A stretch of 64,000 bases of DNA from Phorcysia thermohydrogeniphila (GTDB lineage: Bacteria; Aquificota; Aquificia; Desulfurobacteriales; Desulfurobacteriaceae): NCBI RefSeq assembly GCF_004339575.1, contig NZ_SMFV01000001.1, positions 175,119 to 239,118 of the forward strand. The letters run 5' to 3'. Below are positions 2,064-49,080 of this stretch, in pieces (within the stretch, counting starts at the first letter, position 1; each line of letters starts with the position of its first letter). A model generated the notes under the pieces. That model made no database searches. It saw nothing but the letters and a program-made list of their open reading frames with translations, and had not been told where the DNA came from. Both the position numbers and the translations under genes were made by a program.

Positions 2064-2947
2064 CCTTTGGAGAGAAGCTAAAAGCAGGAAAGTTCCTGAT
2101 AACGGCAGAAGTAGCTCCCCCAAGGGGAACAGACTGGAAAAGCGTTGTAAAGGGGATAGAACCCTTACGGGGAAAGGTAGACGCCTTTAACGTTACCGAC
2201 TGTCAGAGGTCAATGGTCAGGATGTCGGCCTTGGCCATGTCAAAGCTCCTCCTTGACAGTGGCTTTGACCCGATACTACAGCTTACCTGTAGAGACAGAA
2301 ACAGAATAGCCCTCCAGTCTGACCTTTTAGGTGCAGCAGCTTTTGGCATTAAGAACATCTGCCTGATGACAGGAGACTTTACGACCCTCGGAGACCAGAA
2401 GGACGCAAAACCTGTCTTTGACGTAGACTCAGTAGGGCTGATAGAGACGGCCAAAAGGCTTACAGAAGGATACCTCCTAAACGGTAAAGAGTTAAAGGGA
2501 GTCCCAGAGTTCTGTATAGGGGCAGTCTTTAATCCCTTTGCAGGGCCCTTTGAACTTCAGATTATGAAGCTGGAGAAGAAGATAAGGGCTGGAGCTCTCT
2601 TTATCCAGACCCAGCCAGTTTACGACGTGAAAGTGGCAGAGGAGGTTAATAGCCTCATATCGGAACTCGGAGCTGTCCCCATCATAGGACTACTTCCCAT
2701 TAAGAGCCTAAGGATGGCCAACTTTATGAAGAAACTCAACCCAACTTCTATTCCTGACTCCTTGGTAGAAGGGCTTGAAAAGGCCAATGACCCAGCAAAG
2801 TACGGCTGGGACTACATCATAGACTTAGCCCACGCCATTGCAGAGTTTGGAAGGGGCATTCACTTTATGCTTGTTGGAAAGACAGAAGAGCTTGCCTCCT
2901 TTATAGACTACTTAAGAAACCACGAAAGGTACAACCACAAGTTTTAG
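2060..2947 (+). CDS. metF: 5,10-methylenetetrahydrofolate reductase
   Basis: 295-aa ORF with typical MetF TIM-barrel blocks (FLITAEVAPPRG, NVTDCQ, LQLTCRD, CLMTGD). Coupled to metV. Confidence 0.85.
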   Translation: MTFGEKLKAGKFLITAEVAPPRGTDWKSVVKGIEPLRGKVDAFNVTDCQRSMVRMSALAMSKLLLDSGFDPILQLTCRDRNRIALQSDLLGAAAFGIKNICLMTGDFTTLGDQKDAKPVFDVDSVGLIETAKRLTEGYLLNGKELKGVPEFCIGAVFNPFAGPFELQIMKLEKKIRAGALFIQTQPVYDVKVAEEVNSLISELGAVPIIGLLPIKSLRMANFMKKLNPTSIPDSLVEGLEKANDPAKYGWDYIIDLAHAIAEFGRGIHFMLVGKTEELASFIDYLRNHERYNHKF

Positions 2948-2961
2948 GGAGGAAAACTTAC

Positions 2962-3648
2962 ATGAACGACCTGCCGGTGCACGTCGGCATAATAATGGAT
3001 GGAAACGGTAGGTGGGCAAAGAGGAGAGGGCTTCCAAGGATTGAGGGTCACAGGAAAGGAGCTGAGGTAACTGAGAAGATAGTTATAGCCGCAAGCAGGC
3101 TTGGGATAAAGTACCTCTCTCTCTACGCTTTTTCAACAGAAAACTGGAAAAGGCCAAAGGAAGAAGTTGAGTTTCTCTTCCACCTAATGTACGAGTACGT
3201 GAAAAGTAAGCTCCAGCTTTTCCTTGATAACAACGTAAGCTTTAGGGCTATGGGAAGGCTTCATCAGCTCCCCGAATACCTTCAAGAAGGTTTTAAGGAA
3301 ATAGAGGAAGAAACTCGCCACTGCACCGGCATGACGGCTGTCTTTGCCGTTAACTACGGAGGAAGGCAGGAGATTATTGACGCAGTTAACAGGGCACTAA
3401 AGGCAGGAGAAAAGGAGATAAACGAAGAAGTAATAAGGAGATACCTCTACATTCCAGAACTCCCCGACCTTGACCTTCTCATAAGGACGAGCGGGGAGTT
3501 AAGGATTTCCAACTTCCTCCTCTGGCAGTCGGCCTACACGGAGCTCTGGTTCACTAAAACCCTCTGGCCAGACTTCACAGAAGAAGAGTTCTTGGCTGCC
3601 ATTGAAGACTACAAGAGGAGAGAACGCAGGTTCGGCGGTCTAAAATGA
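2962..3648 (+). CDS. uppS: Undecaprenyl-diphosphate synthase (cis-isoprenyl transferase)
   Basis: HVGIIMDGNGRWAKRRGLPRIEGH and ...NYGGRQEI... plus the RxSNFLLWQ signature of UppS. Confidence 0.9.
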   Translation: MNDLPVHVGIIMDGNGRWAKRRGLPRIEGHRKGAEVTEKIVIAASRLGIKYLSLYAFSTENWKRPKEEVEFLFHLMYEYVKSKLQLFLDNNVSFRAMGRLHQLPEYLQEGFKEIEEETRHCTGMTAVFAVNYGGRQEIIDAVNRALKAGEKEINEEVIRRYLYIPELPDLDLLIRTSGELRISNFLLWQSAYTELWFTKTLWPDFTEEEFLAAIEDYKRRERRFGGLK

Positions 3649-4397
3649 GAGAAAGGCTCATAGGTGCGCTACTTGTTGTAACTTACGCTTTAACTATGGT
3701 CTTAGCTCCTAAAGATTTCTACATCTCCTTAGTTTACCTCCTCGGTATAGGAATGGTGGCAGAGCTCTTTGCAATATCCAGAATGGAGAGCGCCAAAACG
3801 GCAGCTGCTGTTATTTTTTCAATCCTCTACTTTGCAGGGATACACATCCCCCACATCTCCTTCCTGATTCCCTCGGCAGGAATTCTCTTTCTATTCAGCT
3901 ACTTCATACTAATAGAGGGAAAGGTTCCGGAAAAGTTTTTGGTAACTGCTGGGTTCTTTATATACTTGAGCATGGGAGTTATAGCCATAGGGAAACTTTC
4001 TAAGGAGCTCTTCATACTCCTCCTCAGCATCGTCTGGTCGGTTGATACCTTTGCCTACTTAGTAGGCAAGTATTTCGGCAAACACAAGCTAATACCGGAA
4101 ATTAGCCCTAAAAAAACCGTTGAAGGAGCCGTTGGCGGCACAGTTGGAGGAGTAATTACTGGAAGCCTCATCGGGAACCACTTGGGAGTTCTTGAGTTCT
4201 CCGTGCTCACATTTTTTATACTTGCCACTCTAACAGCTATATCGCAGATTGGAGACCTACTTGAGAGCTTTATTAAAAGGTTCTTTGGAGTCAAGGATTC
4301 TGGCAATCTAATCCCCGGACACGGAGGACTTCTTGACAGACTTGACAGCAGCTTAGCAGTTGCTCCATTCTTAGTCATCATTGGAGGTCTGCAGTGA
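3645..4397 (+). CDS. cdsA: Phosphatidate cytidylyltransferase
   Basis: Polytopic membrane protein with the C-terminal CTP-transferase signature SPKKTVEGAVGG...GDLLESFIKR..KDSG..IPGHGG.LDR.DS. 4-nt overlap with uppS. Confidence 0.85.
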   Translation: MRERLIGALLVVTYALTMVLAPKDFYISLVYLLGIGMVAELFAISRMESAKTAAAVIFSILYFAGIHIPHISFLIPSAGILFLFSYFILIEGKVPEKFLVTAGFFIYLSMGVIAIGKLSKELFILLLSIVWSVDTFAYLVGKYFGKHKLIPEISPKKTVEGAVGGTVGGVITGSLIGNHLGVLEFSVLTFFILATLTAISQIGDLLESFIKRFFGVKDSGNLIPGHGGLLDRLDSSLAVAPFLVIIGGLQ

Positions 4398-15400: not shown

Positions 15401-18115
15401 ATGATAAGGCTCAGAAGTCTTAAGCTACACGGATTCCTCTCTCACAGGGAAACGGAGCTCACCTTTGATGACGAGGCCTACGTAATCCTTGGGGAGAACG
15501 CCTCAGGAAAGACCTCCATCCTCAGGGGAATCTTCTTTGCACTCTTTGGGAAAGACTTTACTGCCGAAAAGTTAGAGAGGGTAGTAAACAGGGACTCAAC
15601 GAGTTTACAGGTGGAGCTCTCCTTCCTCCACAGAGGGACTAACTACAGGATTAAGAGGAAGTTCTCGGCGCTAAGGAAAAAGAGCGAGGCAGAGCTCTAC
15701 AAAGGAAACGCCTTATATGCAAGTGGCGTAAAGAACGTAAACTACGTAATTGAAAAGGAGCTCGGCCTTGACTCACATCTATTCAGGAACACGGTTTACG
15801 TTCCACAGGGAGAGATACTCACCCTCTTTAACCTCCAGAGGAAGGAAAAGAGACAGGTTCTAAACAGGCTACTGGGCTTAGAGGAAATCGGTAAAAGGCA
15901 CGAGGAGGTAAAGAACTTTATATCAAGGCTTAAGGCCCTAAGGGACTCCCTCCTTAAAAGTCAGGAACTCTTAGAGGAGATAAAGTCTGAGCTTTTAAAA
16001 ACGGAAAAGGAAATAGAAGAAAAAGAAGAGGAGCTAAATGAAAAGAGAGAACAGTTAAAGGAAGAGGAGAAACTATTAAAAGATCAGGAAAATCTCTACG
16101 AGAGCTTAGTAGAGAAGAGAGAGAAGTTCCTAAGGCTCACAGACAGCCTCTCCCGTGTAGAGAAGGAGATAAGGGAAAGGGAAGCCGAGCTAAAGGAGCT
16201 ATCCCAGAGAATAGAGAAGGTAGAAGCCCTTAAAGGGAAAATTCCTGAGTTAAGGGAGTGTGTTAAGCTCCTCAAGCCCCTAAAGGAGATAAAGTCCCTC
16301 CTTTCTCAGATTGCAGAAAAGAAAAATGAGCTCTTAGCCCTCCAGAAGGAAACCTTAAACCTTGAAAGGATAAAGGAGGAGGTGGAGAACCTCCAGAGTG
16401 AGATACCGGAAATTGAGAAGGAGCTAAGGGAAACGGGAGCTCTCCTTGAGGAAAGAGAGAAGGAGCTAAAAGAGGCCGAAGAGAAGTTAAGGGAACTGAG
16501 AGAAACCGAAAGGTTTTATAGGAGCCTTTTAACCTCCCTTAAGGAAAACGAAGAAAGGCTTAAAGGAGTTGAGGAGGAGATTGAAAAAATCCCAAAGGTA
16601 GAACCTCAAGAAAGGGCCAAGGAGGTAGAAAGGTTAAAGTCAGAAGTGGAAAAGATAAGGGAGGAACTCTCAGCTCTAAGGGTCAAAATCTCTGAGGCCA
16701 AGAGGAAAGAAAACCTACTTGAGGAAACAAACAGCCCAGAGTGCCCCGTATGTGGCTCTCCGATGGAGGAGGAAAAGAGGAAAAGACTCCTACAGGAGAG
16801 CAGAAAAATAGTAAGAAAGGCTGAAGAAGAACTAAAAAGGCTTGAGGAGCTCCTTGAATCTAAGGAAAGAGCCCTTAAGGAGTCCGAAAAACTACTAAAG
16901 GAGGAACTTGTTAACGCAGAAAGGAGGAAGGCCTTAAAGGAGGAAGAGAAGAGACTGAAGGAGAAACTAACAACACTTCAGAGGAAGCTAAAAGAGCTAA
17001 ACTTTAAAGAGGAAGAAATCTCTTCACTTGAGAGAAGGGACTCAGAGCTAAAGAGGGAAGTAGCCAAGCTAAAGGAGAGGAAGGAGCTCCTAAGGAAGAG
17101 ACTATCTGAAACGGACAGGAAGCTAAAGGAGCGCAGGACTAAGTTCTCAGAGGAAAAACTGAGAGAGCTCCAAAAGAAAATAAGAACTATAGAAAAAGAG
17201 ATAGAGGAGCTCCTTTCAAAGATAAAGGAGATAAAGAGGGAGCACAACCTCAAGGTATCAAAAGCGAGGGAAGTTGACGGTGAAATAGAGAAACTTGAAA
17301 AGCTAAAAGAGGAGCTAAATAAGATAGAGGGCGAGGTCAAAAACCTACCTGCCTACATTGAAGAAAAGGGCAAGAAAGAGAAGAGACTGAAGGAACTTAC
17401 AGAGGAGAGGGAAAACCTCTTAGAGGCCATAAAGAGGCTTGACTTTAAAAAGGAAGCCCTTGAGACCGTTGAAAAGACCTTGAAGAAACAGAAGGAAACT
17501 GTTGAAACCCTTAAAAGCTCCATCTCTAAGCTTGAAGGGGAGTTAAAGGCTCTGAGGAAAAAGGTAGAGCTTGACAGGGAAAAACTGAAGAGAAGGGAAA
17601 AAGAGTCTAAACTCCTTGCAAAAACGGAGGATTCTTTAAGAATCCTCAAAGCAGTCTCAGAGGGTATCCACCCAGAAAAAGGCTTCCTCCAGAAGGTTAG
17701 AAAATCCCTCCTGCCACAGATTTCCCGCTACTGCAGGGAGTTCTTTGAGGAGTTTGACTTTGAGTTTGGGGACTTGGAAATCTCCGAGGACCTCACGGTA
17801 ACTTTTAGCGTTCCCGGTGGTGGGAGGGTGGAGCTCTCAGACTTTTCAGGTGGACAGCAGATAGCCTTTGCCCTCTCCCTCAGGTTTGCAATGGCACGCT
17901 ACTTTGCCCAGAACTTTGAGCTCCTCATACTTGATGAGCCCACAATTCACCTTGACCAGCAGAGAAGACAGGCACTAACAGACCTGCTACTAAAGCTAAA
18001 AGTTAAAATACCCCAGATGGTAATCGTTACCCACGACCCGGAGCTTGAAGTCGTCGGAGACAGAGTTATAAGAGTTAAAAACGTTAACGGAGTTTCAGAA
18101 GTAACCGTAAGCTAA
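15401..18115 (+). CDS. sbcC: SbcC/Rad50-family SMC-like ATPase with zinc hook
   Basis: ATG at 15401 (RBS GAGAGGGAAA). Walker A GENASGKTS, a ~600-aa K/E-rich coiled coil with central CPVCG zinc hook, C-terminal signature/Walker B LILDEPT. No adjacent sbcD/mre11. Confidence 0.8.
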   Translation: MIRLRSLKLHGFLSHRETELTFDDEAYVILGENASGKTSILRGIFFALFGKDFTAEKLERVVNRDSTSLQVELSFLHRGTNYRIKRKFSALRKKSEAELYKGNALYASGVKNVNYVIEKELGLDSHLFRNTVYVPQGEILTLFNLQRKEKRQVLNRLLGLEEIGKRHEEVKNFISRLKALRDSLLKSQELLEEIKSELLKTEKEIEEKEEELNEKREQLKEEEKLLKDQENLYESLVEKREKFLRLTDSLSRVEKEIREREAELKELSQRIEKVEALKGKIPELRECVKLLKPLKEIKSLLSQIAEKKNELLALQKETLNLERIKEEVENLQSEIPEIEKELRETGALLEEREKELKEAEEKLRELRETERFYRSLLTSLKENEERLKGVEEEIEKIPKVEPQERAKEVERLKSEVEKIREELSALRVKISEAKRKENLLEETNSPECPVCGSPMEEEKRKRLLQESRKIVRKAEEELKRLEELLESKERALKESEKLLKEELVNAERRKALKEEEKRLKEKLTTLQRKLKELNFKEEEISSLERRDSELKREVAKLKERKELLRKRLSETDRKLKERRTKFSEEKLRELQKKIRTIEKEIEELLSKIKEIKREHNLKVSKAREVDGEIEKLEKLKEELNKIEGEVKNLPAYIEEKGKKEKRLKELTEERENLLEAIKRLDFKKEALETVEKTLKKQKETVETLKSSISKLEGELKALRKKVELDREKLKRREKESKLLAKTEDSLRILKAVSEGIHPEKGFLQKVRKSLLPQISRYCREFFEEFDFEFGDLEISEDLTVTFSVPGGGRVELSDFSGGQQIAFALSLRFAMARYFAQNFELLILDEPTIHLDQQRRQALTDLLLKLKVKIPQMVIVTHDPELEVVGDRVIRVKNVNGVSEVTVS

Positions 18116-26850: not shown

Positions 26851-26907
26851 ATCGTGAGGGGGGATTCCATCCCCCTCAAACTCCCCCTTCTGAAAACATC
26901 AAAAACC

Positions 26908-27168
26908 CATCTACTTTTCAGGGCAGACAACCGTGAGGGGGGATTATCATCCCCCCTCAGACTCCCCCCTATGAAGAACTTTAAAAACCTTCCACTTTTC
27001 AGGGCATTTCAACGAGTATCAAGAGGAAGATTAGACAGATAAGTTTTGCCAGCGAATTGTCGCAATCCCTTCCACTTTTCAGGGCATTTCAACCAAAGCG
27101 ACATTGAGAGCATGGAGATTGACGACCTGCCTCGTCGCAATCCCTTCCACTTTTCAGGGCTTTTCAAC
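26908..27168 (-). CRISPR. Orphan CRISPR mini-array: two intact 35-nt repeats plus two 5'-degenerate repeats, spacers 40 and 45 nt, leader on the right (27169-27398)
   Basis: Plus-strand GTCGCAATCCCTTCCACTTTTCAGGGC(A/T)TTTCAAC at 27059-27093 and 27134-27168. Truncated copies end at 27013 and 26931. Unique spacers. The minus-strand repeat is GTTGAAATGCCCTGAAAAGTGGAAGGGATTGCGAC. Confidence 0.6.
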
Positions 27169-45767: not shown

Positions 45768-46520
45768 TCAGTAAGGATAGTCCCCGTAGTAGACTTTTTC
45801 AAGGTAAAGGCCGTCCGGCGGAGCTAAGAAGGGTGCAAAAGTGCGATCCCTCTTTTCCCTGATAAACTCTACGTCCTCAGGCCTTAACCTTCCCTTCCCA
45901 ACTTCAACCAAGACAGCAGTCATAACCCTTACCATGTGGCGAAGGAAAGATTTGCCAAAGAAAACAAACTCAACAACGTCTCCCTTCTTTAGGATTTCTA
46001 TAGCGTTAACCGTCCTTACAGGGTTAACCTGCTTCCTCTTGTCTGCCTTTGAGAAGGATGTAAAGTCGTAAGTTCCTATGAGGTACTTTTTCGCCTCCTC
46101 CATAGCGTCAAAGTCAAGCTCGTAGGGGAGAAACCACGCCCTTTTATACTCAAAGGGGCTCGGCACTTTCCTGTTAAATACCCTGTAACGGTAGCGCTTT
46201 CCTTGAGCACTCCTCCTTGCGTCAAAGTCTAAAGGAACTTCTTCAACGTTAACAATTTTTATATCTGGGGGAAGTAAACCGTTCAGGGCAAGCTGTATTT
46301 TGTAAAGGGGAATGTCCTTTTCTGTCTTAAAGTTTGCCACCTGTCCGAGGGCGTGAACGCCTGCATCCGTCCTGCTCGCCCCTGTAAGCTTAACCGGATG
46401 GTTGAGGATTTTCTCAACGACTTCCGTTATCTTACCTGCAACTGTCGGCTTTCCCGGCAAGATTTGCCAGCCGTAGTAGTTCGTCCCCAAGTACTCTATG
46501 GTGAGCTTAACGTTCCTCAT
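45768..46520 (-). CDS. truA: tRNA pseudouridine(38-40) synthase
   Basis: TruA blocks (LTIEYLGTNYYGWQ, GASRTDAGVHALGQV catalytic Asp). Confidence 0.9.
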   Translation of the reverse strand: MRNVKLTIEYLGTNYYGWQILPGKPTVAGKITEVVEKILNHPVKLTGASRTDAGVHALGQVANFKTEKDIPLYKIQLALNGLLPPDIKIVNVEEVPLDFDARRSAQGKRYRYRVFNRKVPSPFEYKRAWFLPYELDFDAMEEAKKYLIGTYDFTSFSKADKRKQVNPVRTVNAIEILKKGDVVEFVFFGKSFLRHMVRVMTAVLVEVGKGRLRPEDVEFIREKRDRTFAPFLAPPDGLYLEKVYYGDYPY

Positions 46521-46529
46521 AACTCATTG

Positions 46530-47219
46530 TTAGGCTTCAATCGTTGAAATTATGCGTTTTAACCTCTCACATCCTCCAACAAAACTCCTATTTTTACAAC
46601 ACTCCGCTTCTTTAATAGAAACCTTTATTTTTGAAGATGTAATATCAAGAAGCTTCTCATAGGCTAACACTATCTTCGCTCTCAAACGGAACTCGTGTTT
46701 TCCCCTTTCCTTGCTTAATAAAAGTACTGGAAAAGGTTCTAAGGTCATAAATAACTTTTTCGCAAATTCTTCATACTTCTCCTTAGGCGGGTATAGCAGA
46801 ACAAAGCAAATAACTTCCTTTGCTTCTTTCCAGAGTGTTTTATATTCCTTGCAAAATTCTACAAACTTCTTCACTACCTTTTTACAATAATCTTCTGCAA
46901 TTTTCTCCAATCTCTCTTCATTAATTTCTCCGTTCTTAAACAAGTCTCGGTAAGGTTTCCCATCTTTTTTGGTTGGAACAAAACGTTTATACTCTAAAGC
47001 CAAAATAACGATAGGTTCTTCCTGTGGAAACTCTACTACAACATCTATTTTAGGAGTAGAAGCTCTACCAATAACAGAATCTTGATGTTTTGACCAAGCC
47101 TCGTAGTGGAAAACGTCCATATCCAACAAAGTTTCATACTCTTTTTCTCTACAAGGGAATTCCTTTCTTTCATCAAGTTCCTTTAACTTTTTCCTGAATA
47201 CCGCTAAATCACCCTCCAT
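46530..47219 (-). CDS. Small partner protein of the OLD-type ATPase: uncharacterised, PD-(D/E)xK-like (or Toprim-like) putative nuclease
   Basis: 229 aa; its start lies 16 nt inside the ATPase gene. Candidate PD-(D/E)xK core PKIDVVVEF...(13 aa)...LALEYK, or alternatively a Toprim-like pattern E2 ... D33-M-D35. Lies inside the AT-rich segment. Confidence 0.45.
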   Translation of the reverse strand: MEGDLAVFRKKLKELDERKEFPCREKEYETLLDMDVFHYEAWSKHQDSVIGRASTPKIDVVVEFPQEEPIVILALEYKRFVPTKKDGKPYRDLFKNGEINEERLEKIAEDYCKKVVKKFVEFCKEYKTLWKEAKEVICFVLLYPPKEKYEEFAKKLFMTLEPFPVLLLSKERGKHEFRLRAKIVLAYEKLLDITSSKIKVSIKEAECCKNRSFVGGCERLKRIISTIEA

Positions 47220-48394
47220 AAAGGCTCTCCCAACAGGTCAAAAATCATTCCTACATTATCATTAGCACATTTTAATTGGCCATCCTCCGCTAAATAAAAG
47301 TCAACCTTCTCAGAAATTTGTTCAGTATAGTAACGCAGAGCTTGGACTATGTAAGGACTGTGGGTTGTTAGCAGTATCCTAGTCCCTAAGGTTTTGTGTA
47401 TCTCCACTAAAATCCTCACGTATTCAAGTTGCCACTTAGGATGAAGGTGAACTTCCGGCTCGTCAATTATAAGAATGGAGTTATAGGAAACTGTTCCATT
47501 TTCTAAAAGCAACAAGAGAATTCCGAAAGATTTTATTCCCGTTGCTGTGCCAAGCATTCTAAAAATTCTTCCTTCTTTTTCAAACAAAATCTCATCCTTC
47601 TCTAACTTAAGGTTTCCTCTTATAATACTCTTTATCTCCTTGGCAATCTCTAAACCATCTTCCGCTTTCTTTTCTCTTAACAGCTTTCTAACTAAATCCC
47701 TCATTATAAAAGGATATGGATACTTCAACCTATCCTTTTTTTTAATCACCAATCTATAGAAGAACTCAACCAAGTCCATAACAACGGGTGTACATATCAA
47801 AGTTGCATCTTTAAAAGGCCTAACTTTTTTACCATTTACTTCAGGGACACTGTCGTAAAAGGAAACGGATTCTGAAGTCAGTAGAACCTTATAGAGCTCT
47901 GTCCCATCTTCAGCTAAAAGGTATACCTCTCCTTTTTCATTCTCAGAAATTAAAGCGTCCAGAGCTCCAAAGTTATAAAGTACCTGACTGTAAAATTCCC
48001 GCCTTCTCCTTTCAAAAAAAGCTTTTTCCTCATTAACCCAAAGTTCCAGTTCCTTCACTTCTTTTCCTAATTCCTTACCTAATCCCTTACCGAAAAGAAG
48101 GTTATACAACTTTTCCACGTGTTTTTTAGATTTTACATCTTCTGGAATCTCCTTAACCAAGGAAGGTACAGTTTGGACTAACTTTGTTTTTATCTTCTCC
48201 AATAAACCTTTTCTTTTACCCTCCATGTAACTTTCAAGCTTATGTTCTGCTATATTATCCGCCTTAACTATAGAAAAAAGCATTTTTCCTACTGTGCTTT
48301 TTCCTGAATCATTTTCACCGGCAATGAGAGTTATACCACGCAAGTTAATATCTGCCGATTTTATAAGTCCTATATTTTTTAGAGTTAACCTCAT
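47204..48394 (-). CDS. OLD-family/AAA_21-type ABC ATPase (AbiLi/PtuA-like)
   Basis: Walker A GENDSGKST. Walker B plus signature IIDEPEVHLHP (the DEPE.HLHP motif typical of OLD/AAA_21 ATPases). H-loop LLTTHSP. Visibly AT-rich relative to flanking genes. Confidence 0.7.
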   Translation of the reverse strand: MRLTLKNIGLIKSADINLRGITLIAGENDSGKSTVGKMLFSIVKADNIAEHKLESYMEGKRKGLLEKIKTKLVQTVPSLVKEIPEDVKSKKHVEKLYNLLFGKGLGKELGKEVKELELWVNEEKAFFERRRREFYSQVLYNFGALDALISENEKGEVYLLAEDGTELYKVLLTSESVSFYDSVPEVNGKKVRPFKDATLICTPVVMDLVEFFYRLVIKKKDRLKYPYPFIMRDLVRKLLREKKAEDGLEIAKEIKSIIRGNLKLEKDEILFEKEGRIFRMLGTATGIKSFGILLLLLENGTVSYNSILIIDEPEVHLHPKWQLEYVRILVEIHKTLGTRILLTTHSPYIVQALRYYTEQISEKVDFYLAEDGQLKCANDNVGMIFDLLGEPLWRVI

Positions 48395-48483
48395 CTTTTA
48401 CTACTCCACCTTACTTGGTTGGGCAAATTTTATCACACAAAAACCATGTTAGAATCTTCCCGCAAATTTCACGGGAGTAAACT

Positions 48484-49080
48484 ATGAGAAGACTTTTAAC
48501 TGTTCTCTTCATCATCCTAACCGCTCAACCTGCCAGTGCAGACCTTAAGTGCTTCTTAGAGAAGCTAAAAAGTGTAAAGTCTATGAAGATACTTTTTAGC
48601 CAGAGGACAAAGCTCCCCGTGGCAGGTGACGAGGTAGACCTTTATAGTGGCGTGATTTACTACAAGAGGCCTTTACACTTTAGGTGGGAGTACAAAAAGG
48701 GTAGTGATATCCGAATTATTTCCAACGGGGAGCTCCTTGAAGTTATCTTCCCCTCAGAAAAGGAGTGTCAGGTTACAGAGCTCTCAGCCCCCAGCACCGT
48801 ATTCCCGCTGTTCCAGATTATTGAAAATCCGGAAAACCTTCGGAAACTCTTTAAAGTCTTAAAGGAGAGTAAGGACGGCGACAGCTGGGTGGTGGGGCTC
48901 TCCCCAACTTACAAGGATTCTACCTTTGAGAGAGTTACCCTATTCATTGACGGTAGCTGTAACCTCAGAGCCATAAAAACCTACCAGTTTGACGGAACGG
49001 AAGCCACCTACATTTTTAGAGAGGTAACTATAAATGAGGAATTACCGGAGAAGCTCTTTGAATTAGAAGCGTGCGAGTAA
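48484..49080 (+). CDS. lolA: LolA-like outer-membrane lipoprotein carrier
   Basis: Signal peptide MRRLLTVLFIILTAQPASA. LolA-like beta-barrel blocks (FSQRTKLPVAGDE..SG.IYYKRP..FRWEY). Followed by a GGCCGGC-aaaaa-GCCGGCC hairpin. Confidence 0.6.
   Translation: MRRLLTVLFIILTAQPASADLKCFLEKLKSVKSMKILFSQRTKLPVAGDEVDLYSGVIYYKRPLHFRWEYKKGSDIRIISNGELLEVIFPSEKECQVTELSAPSTVFPLFQIIENPENLRKLFKVLKESKDGDSWVVGLSPTYKDSTFERVTLFIDGSCNLRAIKTYQFDGTEATYIFREVTINEELPEKLFELEACE

Follow-up and report, generated by a model that had tools for sequence, protein, structure and literature searches.

The window analysed here is a 64,000-nucleotide (nt) stretch of contig NZ_SMFV01000001.1 from Phorcysia thermohydrogeniphila, numbered from its first letter. 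It carries two overlapping, AT-rich genes between truA and lolA, which raises the questions of what the two genes encode, how they came to lie between housekeeping genes and what they do there. The pair is probably a horizontally acquired conflict (anti-phage) module of the HEC-02 (Hma-embedded candidate 02) / PD-T4-4 type, in which an ATP-binding cassette (ABC) ATPase would control a PD-(D/E)xK nuclease. Observed directly were the identities of the domains, the conservation of motifs and the coupling of the genes, together with the presence of the pair in some relatives and its absence from others, its carriage on mobile elements and a fast turnover of its alleles; homology and architecture suggest the anti-phage role itself. 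The gene pair (the cassette) and its flanks are arranged as follows, with the strand in brackets.

47204..48394 (-): gene for the ABC-type ATPase, 396 amino acids (aa); AAA_15/AAA_21, predicted sensor or regulator subunit
46530..47219 (-): gene for the partner, 229 aa; divergent member of a D...ExK (NERD-like, PD-(D/E)xK) family, predicted nuclease effector
47204..47219 (-): the 16 nt in which the end of the ATPase gene overlaps the start of the partner gene
45768..46520 (-): truA, flank; Pfam PseudoU_synth_1, 4.2e-38; its start codon is the insertion boundary
48484..49080 (+): lolA, flank; Pfam LolA, 1.7e-22
46521..46529 (-): 9-nt spacer from the partner stop to the truA start
48395..48483: 89-nt divergent intergenic region between lolA and the ATPase gene

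An earlier note on this DNA, made by reading its letters, had reported two overlapping same-strand open reading frames between truA and lolA, and the coordinates, lengths and 16-nt overlap that it gave were exact. The AT-richness that it had judged by eye was also borne out by calculation. The cassette (46530-48394) has a GC content of 35.9%, while the remainder of the window has 45.4% (z = -5.6 relative to every other segment of 1865 nt), and the lowest-GC 1865-nt segment of the entire 64 kb begins at 46536. Sliding GC is 0.35-0.39 across 46500-48500 and 0.45-0.50 to either side, while GC at third codon positions is 0.33-0.35 in the cassette genes and 0.48-0.55 in eight neighbouring genes. 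Beyond lolA and truA lie iPGM, birA-like and molybdopterin oxidoreductase genes. The 16-nt ATPase/partner overlap is identical in five other loci of the comparison (L001, L002, L004, L043 and L045), and a Shine-Dalgarno-like element for the partner (GGGAGAG) is found just upstream of the overlap, within the ATPase gene. We infer that the ATPase and the partner are translationally coupled.

The site is empty in a close relative. In a contig of a metagenome-assembled genome (MAG; CAZQLZ010000063, locus L029) lolA adjoins truA without a cassette, with a spacer of 98 nt as opposed to 2004 nt in the window. This contig is collinear with the window, with approximately 90% nucleotide identity through the oxidoreductase gene and lolA and 95.7% at the start of truA; it aligns to window positions 49189-48526 at 89.6% and the alignment picks up again at 46521. 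Overall, the flanks of the two are 91-96% identical. The same site is occupied in a Joint Genome Institute (JGI) contig (L002), where the order is lolA-ATPase-partner-truA with the same 9-nt spacing before truA. The cassettes of the window and L002 share 90.1% nucleotide identity, whereas their flanks share just 83-84%, and the lolA/ATPase spacer of the window is 75% identical to that of the occupied L002 but 63% identical to that of the empty L029. Elsewhere, cassettes of the window clade are found at other sites: in L043 (ATPase 64% identical) between the end of a GGDEF-type gene and der/engA, and in L045 (84% identical) after an rluB-like gene and a DNA methyltransferase fragment. The gene pair is therefore mobile and was horizontally acquired, given the empty site in a close relative, a cassette more conserved than its flanks and the different sites within one clade. 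Horizontal acquisition had been proposed in the earlier note, and L029 bears it out; vertical conservation of the pair across the family is not what was found, as L029 lacks it and it is absent beside truA in Desulfurobacterium MAGs. By its truA relatives the window organism falls near Desulfurobacterium in the Aquificota, with 77% identity to an uncultured Desulfurobacterium MAG, and in more distant Desulfurobacterium MAGs truA has neither lolA nor the cassette beside it.

The insert is not bounded by terminal repeats, direct or inverted, and no integrase accompanies it; no tRNA genes or Rfam families were found anywhere in the 64-kb window. The cassette has diverged less than its surroundings, and where it occurs is out of step with host relatedness. 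This favours lateral transfer through homologous recombination as opposed to vertical inheritance followed by a precise loss. The signal-peptide codons of lolA in the window (48484-48525) are nearer to those of L002 (…ILTAQPASADL…) than to those of the otherwise closer L029 (…LLFTQPASADF…, with one extra codon), a weak hint that the imported recombination tract reaches into the 5' end of lolA. The methyltransferase fragment of L045 (positions 253-414) comprises 53 N-terminal residues (…DSPYNIGKDFG…) directly upstream of the 84%-identical cassette and may be the remnant of a restriction-modification (RM) system.

Two plasmids, one of Bacillus cereus and one of Acinetobacter, and a contig deposited, unverified, as 'Bacteriophage sp.' also carry ATPase-partner pairs. 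In the last of these (MT835532.1; L127, positions 2179-4105) a 453-aa ATPase is followed by an overlapping 192-aa partner that scores 130 bits against the family hidden Markov model (HMM). The pair adjoins a relaxase-like open reading frame of 388 aa on this 40-kb contig, which may actually represent a plasmid or a phage-plasmid.

Low GC is not confined to the window. Among eight hosts compared (L001, L002, L004, L005, L006, L036, L038 and L040), whose GC contents range from 26% to 46%, the pair lies 5-16 GC points below its flanks in six, as exemplified by the pair of Sulfurovum NBC37-1 (29% compared to 45%). The exceptions are L040, where it is only about 2 points lower, and L001, where it is no lower and the flank is just 347 nt. 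AT-richness is thus a common trait of the cassette which tracks the host with an offset, and not simply a mark of recent arrival; since it is common to the cassette in most hosts examined, low GC alone cannot date the transfer.

Judging by profile matches and motif order, the larger protein is an AAA_15/AAA_21 ABC ATPase of a defence-associated clade. Its motifs are the following.

48293..48319 (-): Walker A / P-loop, G26-E-N-D-S-G-K32-S-T34, found with a regular expression on the translation
47528..47545 (-): ABC signature-like motif, A284-T-G-I-K-S289, presumed from its placement relative to Walker B as in AAA_21 ATPases
47453..47476 (-): Walker B, I307-L-I-I-D311-E312-P-E314, then VHLHP; the region matched by all defence ATPase profiles
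47357..47368 (-): H-loop, T343-T-H345-S346

Walker A, the signature-like motif, Walker B (with its DE) and the H-loop are present in that order, and the Walker A, Walker B and H-loop strings quoted in the earlier note were all located in the translation. As that note had expected, AAA_15 (5.3e-17, 62.9 bits, cutoff 32.1) and AAA_21 (2.5e-16, 61.1 bits, cutoff 27) of Pfam both match above their gathering cutoffs over nearly the full length. The best PADLOC models are those of HEC-02A (PDLC04214, 4.7e-30; PDLC04213, 3.8e-26, residues 2-367), with PD-T4-4_A (1.1e-26) as the second-ranked match; PtuA, NsnB, AriA and GajA rank next, with matches confined to the surroundings of Walker B and the H-loop. 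The strongest single profile match is to phrog_14430 (5e-46, residues 1-364), a phage protein family of unknown function. Sequence matches in the PDB are to PtuA, OLD and AriA at about 1e-6 and NCBIfam gives the same clade, with the matches to RecN, SbcC and transporters in these two databases being at the level of the P-loop or Walker B only. Pairwise comparison with the tested HEC-02A of Dickeya gives a Smith-Waterman score of 103, where shuffled sequences reach at most 60. The label 'OLD-type' used in the earlier note holds in the loose sense of the ATPase clade and fails for the Toprim domain: the ATPase ends 50 residues past the H-loop, Pfam finds neither a fused Toprim domain nor any other nuclease domain in it, and the GajA and OLD profiles match in their ATPase part alone. 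Homologues of the ATPase number in the thousands, and in every context inspected, plasmids and the phage-labelled contig included, a small gene without a Pfam match overlaps its 3' end.

The identity of the partner is less readily recognised. The window partner has no match in Pfam, NCBIfam, PADLOC (0 families at E <= 1), PHROGs or the PDB sequences, and a word-indexed search of 5.8 billion proteins returned just three close homologues, each beside an ATPase. Searches of metagenomes with the alignment of window-clade partners, and of viral contigs with the 178-aa family, gave no matches, and the PDB sequences yielded nothing meaningful for either the partner or its family profile. The link to a wider family depends on an intermediate, the partner of L004 (whose ATPase is 43% identical), which matches the window partner at a BLASTP E-value of 2e-6 and a Smith-Waterman score of 107 (shuffle maximum 79, 0/2000 shuffles). 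Once the L004 partner is joined to the window clade, hhalign aligns them to 109 diverse family representatives with a probability of 88% (E = 2.8e-6), and between the P0124/L004 clade and the Sulfurovum-type family the alignment has an E-value of 8e-6. Direct comparison does not bridge the distance: the window partner gets 1.5 bits from the HMM of the 109 representatives, less than shuffled controls do, and profile-profile comparison of the shallow window clade alone with the 178-aa family or the P0124 clade is not significant. In all linking alignments C23, E40, D59, E76-x-K78 and P82 (window numbering) are superposed. An exhaustive HMMER search gave 546 cluster representatives at E <= 1e-3, and the family thus comprises at least 546 clusters at 50% identity. 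Based on these stepwise significant links, the partner is a far-diverged member of a sizeable unannotated family and not an orphan. Its conserved core is located as follows.

46974..47114 (-): residues 36-82, VFHYE40 ... PK57-I-D59-VVV ... LALE76-Y-K78-RFVP82; putative catalytic E40, D59, E76 and K78

C23, D59, E76 and K78 are invariant in 41 sequences (alignment A5). In 127 sequences the only invariant columns are D61 and E74, with K76 nearly so (the equivalents of D59, E76 and K78), and F-K-N follows the D...ExK motif almost without exception. Matches to Pfam NERD (PF08378) on the D...ExK segment were found at E <= 5 for 17 of the 41 members (best E-value 0.0012), all below the gathering score (<= 17.6 bits in the members inspected individually, cutoff 22.1). 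Among the 127, 20 match the HEC-02B profile PDLC04226, the best match is to PDLC04225 (3.4e-7), others match PDC-M29B, Cas4 and type II restriction enzyme models, and there is one stray match to ZorE.

An AlphaFold 2 model of the window partner from the 41-sequence alignment is of low confidence, with a predicted local distance difference test score (pLDDT) of 54, and a Foldseek search of the PDB with it returned noise only. The model has strands at 58-64 and 70-78, such that D59 opens one strand and E76-x-K78 lies on the next. The order helix-strand(D)-strand(ExK)-helix-strand is common to this model and to a confident model of a family relative, which has a restriction-endonuclease fold and for which a fold search returns PD-(D/E)xK nucleases; against the PDB, Foldseek gave no match for the relative at E <= 0.001, and the weak matches are mostly to PD-(D/E)xK endonucleases. 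The partner is accordingly described here as a predicted metal-dependent PD-(D/E)xK (restriction-endonuclease-fold) nuclease. This agrees with the first of two guesses in the earlier note, a PD-(D/E)xK core, for D59 ... E76-x-K78 is the very part conserved across the remote family.

The partner is also marked by cysteines. The N-terminal C23, invariant in the 41 members, is accompanied by a nearly invariant C-terminal Cys, and the window clade adds a CC...GxC cluster (C207, C208, C217) in a C-terminal extension. The Cys residues of the window partner could form a metal site or a disulfide.

The known systems closest to the cassette are HEC-02 and PD-T4-4. HEC-02 consists of an ABC ATPase and a NERD-like protein, and phage protection needs both genes (bioRxiv 10.1101/2024.01.29.577857). 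In the tested system of Dickeya dianthicola NCPPB 3534 a 342-aa ATPase (965326-966354) and a 169-aa partner (964820-965329) overlap by 4 nt. Like the window pair (overlap 16 nt), it is a two-gene, same-strand operon with the ATPase first and a small overlapping partner; HEC-02A is the best PADLOC match of the window ATPase, and the window partner family has the same C...D...ExK layout as HEC-02B. The differences are that the window partner is longer (229 aa compared to 169 aa) and has neither a HEC-02B/NERD profile match nor pairwise similarity to the tested HEC-02B, that the window ATPase is longer (396 aa compared to 342 aa) with a longer insert, and that the window pair sits in a housekeeping operon of a Desulfurobacteriaceae-like member of the Aquificota and is not embedded in Hma, RM or BREX. 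The family HMM gives a marginal score against the tested HEC-02B (8.5 bits compared to 6.7 for the best shuffle), on the right motif. The match of the relatives to Pfam NERD is on a core that this PD-(D/E)xK family shares (D...ExK); the window partner itself does not match it and the relatives do so below threshold.

PD-T4-4 of E. coli, discovered on an element resembling an integrative and conjugative element (ICE) (Vassallo et al. 2022, PMC9519451), combines a P-loop NTPase with a PD-(D/E)xK protein and forms higher-order complexes (bioRxiv 10.1101/2025.07.10.664194). It resembles the cassette in pairing a P-loop/ABC NTPase with a PD-(D/E)xK nuclease and in the match of PD-T4-4_A to the window ATPase. 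Unlike the cassette, its PD-T4-4_A profiles are 460-474 positions long, and PD-T4-4_B matches neither the window partner nor the 127 family members. Septu, PARIS, Gabija, OLD and AbiL share the ABC ATPase clade and the general logic of a sensor ATPase with a nuclease and differ in the effector, which is HNH in Septu PtuB, Toprim/DUF4435 in PARIS AriB, a fused Toprim in GajA and OLD, and DUF4276-like in AbiLii; none of the HNH, Toprim, DUF4435 or DUF4276 effectors is matched by the window partner in Pfam or PADLOC. By these comparisons the cassette is best described as a distant variant of the HEC-02 / PD-T4-4 kind, neither a member of those systems nor a new kind of system. It is not filed as a HEC-02 member, despite the shared architecture, because its partner does not match the HEC-02B profile. 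The suggestion that the short partner marks a new variant is weakened, as HEC-02 (with its 169-aa NERD-like protein) and PD-T4-4 already have small NERD or PD-(D/E)xK partners.

A mechanism can be sketched on the models of HEC-02, PD-T4-4, Septu, PARIS and Gabija. The 396-aa ATPase and the 229-aa partner, made from overlapping coupled genes, would form a complex in which the ATPase may sense an infection cue through the large variable insert between Walker A and the signature motif. ATP binding or hydrolysis (K32, D311/E312, H345) would then license, release or activate the partner, and the putative nuclease (E40, D59, E76, K78) would cut phage or host nucleic acid and halt phage replication, possibly at a cost to the cell. 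In the window clade, with its Cys-rich extension and lack of a profile match, the substrate or regulation of the partner could be unlike those of HEC-02B.

In 8 of 10 chromosomal contexts a housekeeping gene on the same strand begins -16 to +22 nt from the partner stop, the downstream genes being truA (window, L002), glyQ (L005, L036, L038), a CDP-alcohol phosphatidyltransferase gene (L004), DegT (L040) and der (L043). The junctions and pairs at these sites are listed below.

L002 2342-2350: junction of the partner and the downstream gene
L004 2243-2253: junction of the partner and the downstream gene
L040 6154-6169: junction of the partner and the downstream gene
L043 2120-2141: junction of the partner and the downstream gene
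L005 6001-7438: pair at the purE-glyQ slot
L036 8001-9564: pair at the purE-glyQ slot
L038 8001-9466: pair at the purE-glyQ slot
L046-L124: further pairs at the purE-glyQ slot

The cassette appears to insert between the promoter and the first gene of an operon. At the window site, two elements lie in the 89-nt lolA/ATPase spacer: TGATAAAAT, which resembles an extended -10, and GGTGGAG, the ribosome-binding site of the ATPase gene; the counterpart of TGATAAAAT in L002 is TGATAGAAT. A generic sigma-70 scan gave no site in this spacer, and a promoter role for TGATAAAAT is suggested by its sequence. The terminator search found none in the cassette and none between the partner and truA. Given the missing terminator and the -10-like element conserved in L002 upstream of the ATPase, transcription of truA probably runs through the cassette.

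In Sulfurovum-type Campylobacterota the pair occupies a single fixed slot, purE-[pair]-glyQ, where the partner overlaps the glyQ start by 7-11 nt. Of 79 Sulfurovum-type metagenome loci, 74 have the ATPase upstream and 44 have glyQ directly downstream, with most of the others ending at contig edges. At this slot glyQ is 77-96% identical, the partner 39-81% and the ATPase 43-73%; the divergence of ATPase and partner co-varies (rho = 0.73), and some loci whose glyQ is at least 92% identical bear partners that are only about 40% identical. The pattern looks like allele turnover or diversifying selection, as would be expected for a conflict system.

Taken further, these sites raise a possibility to which low weight is given. 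The pair may be a minimal element without integrase or repeats that spreads by homologous recombination, settles upstream of housekeeping or essential genes (truA, glyQ, pgsA-like, der), brings or captures a promoter and is stabilised by read-through, with the one Sulfurovum slot holding hypervariable, AT-rich, co-evolving alleles. Such a lifestyle would be an undescribed one.

The operon sites could also be read without any benefit against phages, as those of a selfish addiction or operon-hitchhiking module whose deletion is polar on the downstream gene and/or whose nuclease is a toxin restrained by the ATPase. In its favour are the partner stops close to a same-strand housekeeping start in 8 of 10 contexts and the lack of a terminator before truA; in addition, the Pfam entry for AAA_21 reads 'putative AbiEii toxin, type IV TA' (toxin-antitoxin), and a RelE/ParE pair is found near the copy on the Acinetobacter plasmid. 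This explanation is nevertheless unlikely, as the nearest characterised relatives are validated defence systems, the high variability of alleles at one fixed site points to an external arms race more than to simple addiction, and absence is tolerated, with a clean empty site and an intact truA in a close relative. The selfish and antiviral readings are compatible and not mutually exclusive.

Some observations weigh against the favoured reading of an ATPase-controlled anti-phage nuclease. In three complete genome contexts, pair divergence broadly tracks host divergence. As regards the partner, no profile detects that of the window, its model is of low confidence, and it has insertions specific to its clade, together with a Cys-rich C-terminal extension (C207, C208, C217), which are missing from most relatives. 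The points on the partner would suit a conflict system in which the 229-aa protein is not a nuclease, being instead a degenerate or non-catalytic adaptor or sensor of restriction-endonuclease fold, or a protein of another fold, with the effector elsewhere. Inactive nuclease homologues usually lose catalytic-type residues, yet the residues kept here across 12-30% identity are a catalytic-type D, the ExK and an upstream acidic residue, and the cassette encodes no other candidate effector. A non-nuclease partner is thus quite unlikely.

The tracking of host divergence in those three genomes would instead fit a housekeeping repair or processing pair, that is a small SMC/RecF/SbcC-like ATPase and a nuclease, AT-rich by chance. 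The stable purE-[pair]-glyQ position across many Sulfurovum-type genomes (glyQ in 44 and the ATPase in 74 of the 79 loci) and the weak PHROG and NCBIfam matches to SbcC and RecN at the P-loop could be cited in its favour. Such a pair should not, however, be present or absent among relatives that are about 90% identical, be missing beside truA in Desulfurobacterium MAGs, occupy different loci within one clade or be carried on plasmids and a phage-like contig. At the purE-glyQ site the hypervariable cassette alleles, far more divergent than the flanking genes, likewise disfavour a housekeeping role. The candidate SMC/RecF/RecN identity was rejected for the ATPase, since these profiles match at P-loop level only (E > 0.001) and the defence ATPase profiles at 1e-20 to 1e-30. 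This explanation is improbable.

The second guess of the earlier note, that E2 and D33-M-D35 make the partner a Toprim-like protein (AbiLii/RloB/DUF4276-type) of an AbiL- or PARIS-like split OLD system, is effectively refuted, for although these residues are present in the window and the AriA and OLD profiles weakly match the ATPase, conservation of E2, D33 and D35 does not extend even to the L004 and P0124 clades, no Toprim, DUF4276, DUF4435, AriB or RloB model of Pfam or PADLOC matches, and the fold search with the family gives PD-(D/E)xK nucleases instead.

If the favoured reading of an ATPase-controlled nuclease module is true, the HEC-02 / PD-T4-4 class of ATPase-controlled PD-(D/E)xK systems would extend to thermophile-related Aquificota and would gain the large unannotated partner family. 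Current tools would miss this family; the two-gene HEC-02 model of PADLOC is unsatisfiable at the window locus because the partner scores nothing. The truA-lolA locus would also lend itself to a natural experiment, in which a single site is either filled or empty between flanks that are about 90-95% identical, and the Sulfurovum purE-glyQ slot would supply dozens of natural allele pairs with which to follow the co-evolution of a sensor ATPase and a nuclease. The cassette would bring no new principle of immunity.

Two features elsewhere in the window were observed in passing. An 81-nt unit is present in 1.9 tandem copies at 26853-27006 and contains a G/C-rich palindrome, GAGGGGGGATTCCATCCCCCTC. 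The segment 16001-18000 has a strong purine strand bias (AT skew 0.39, GC skew 0.23) and AG-rich tandem repeats of 21-23 nt at 16017-16071 and 17046-17087, and its repeats probably encode a low-complexity, charged protein segment.

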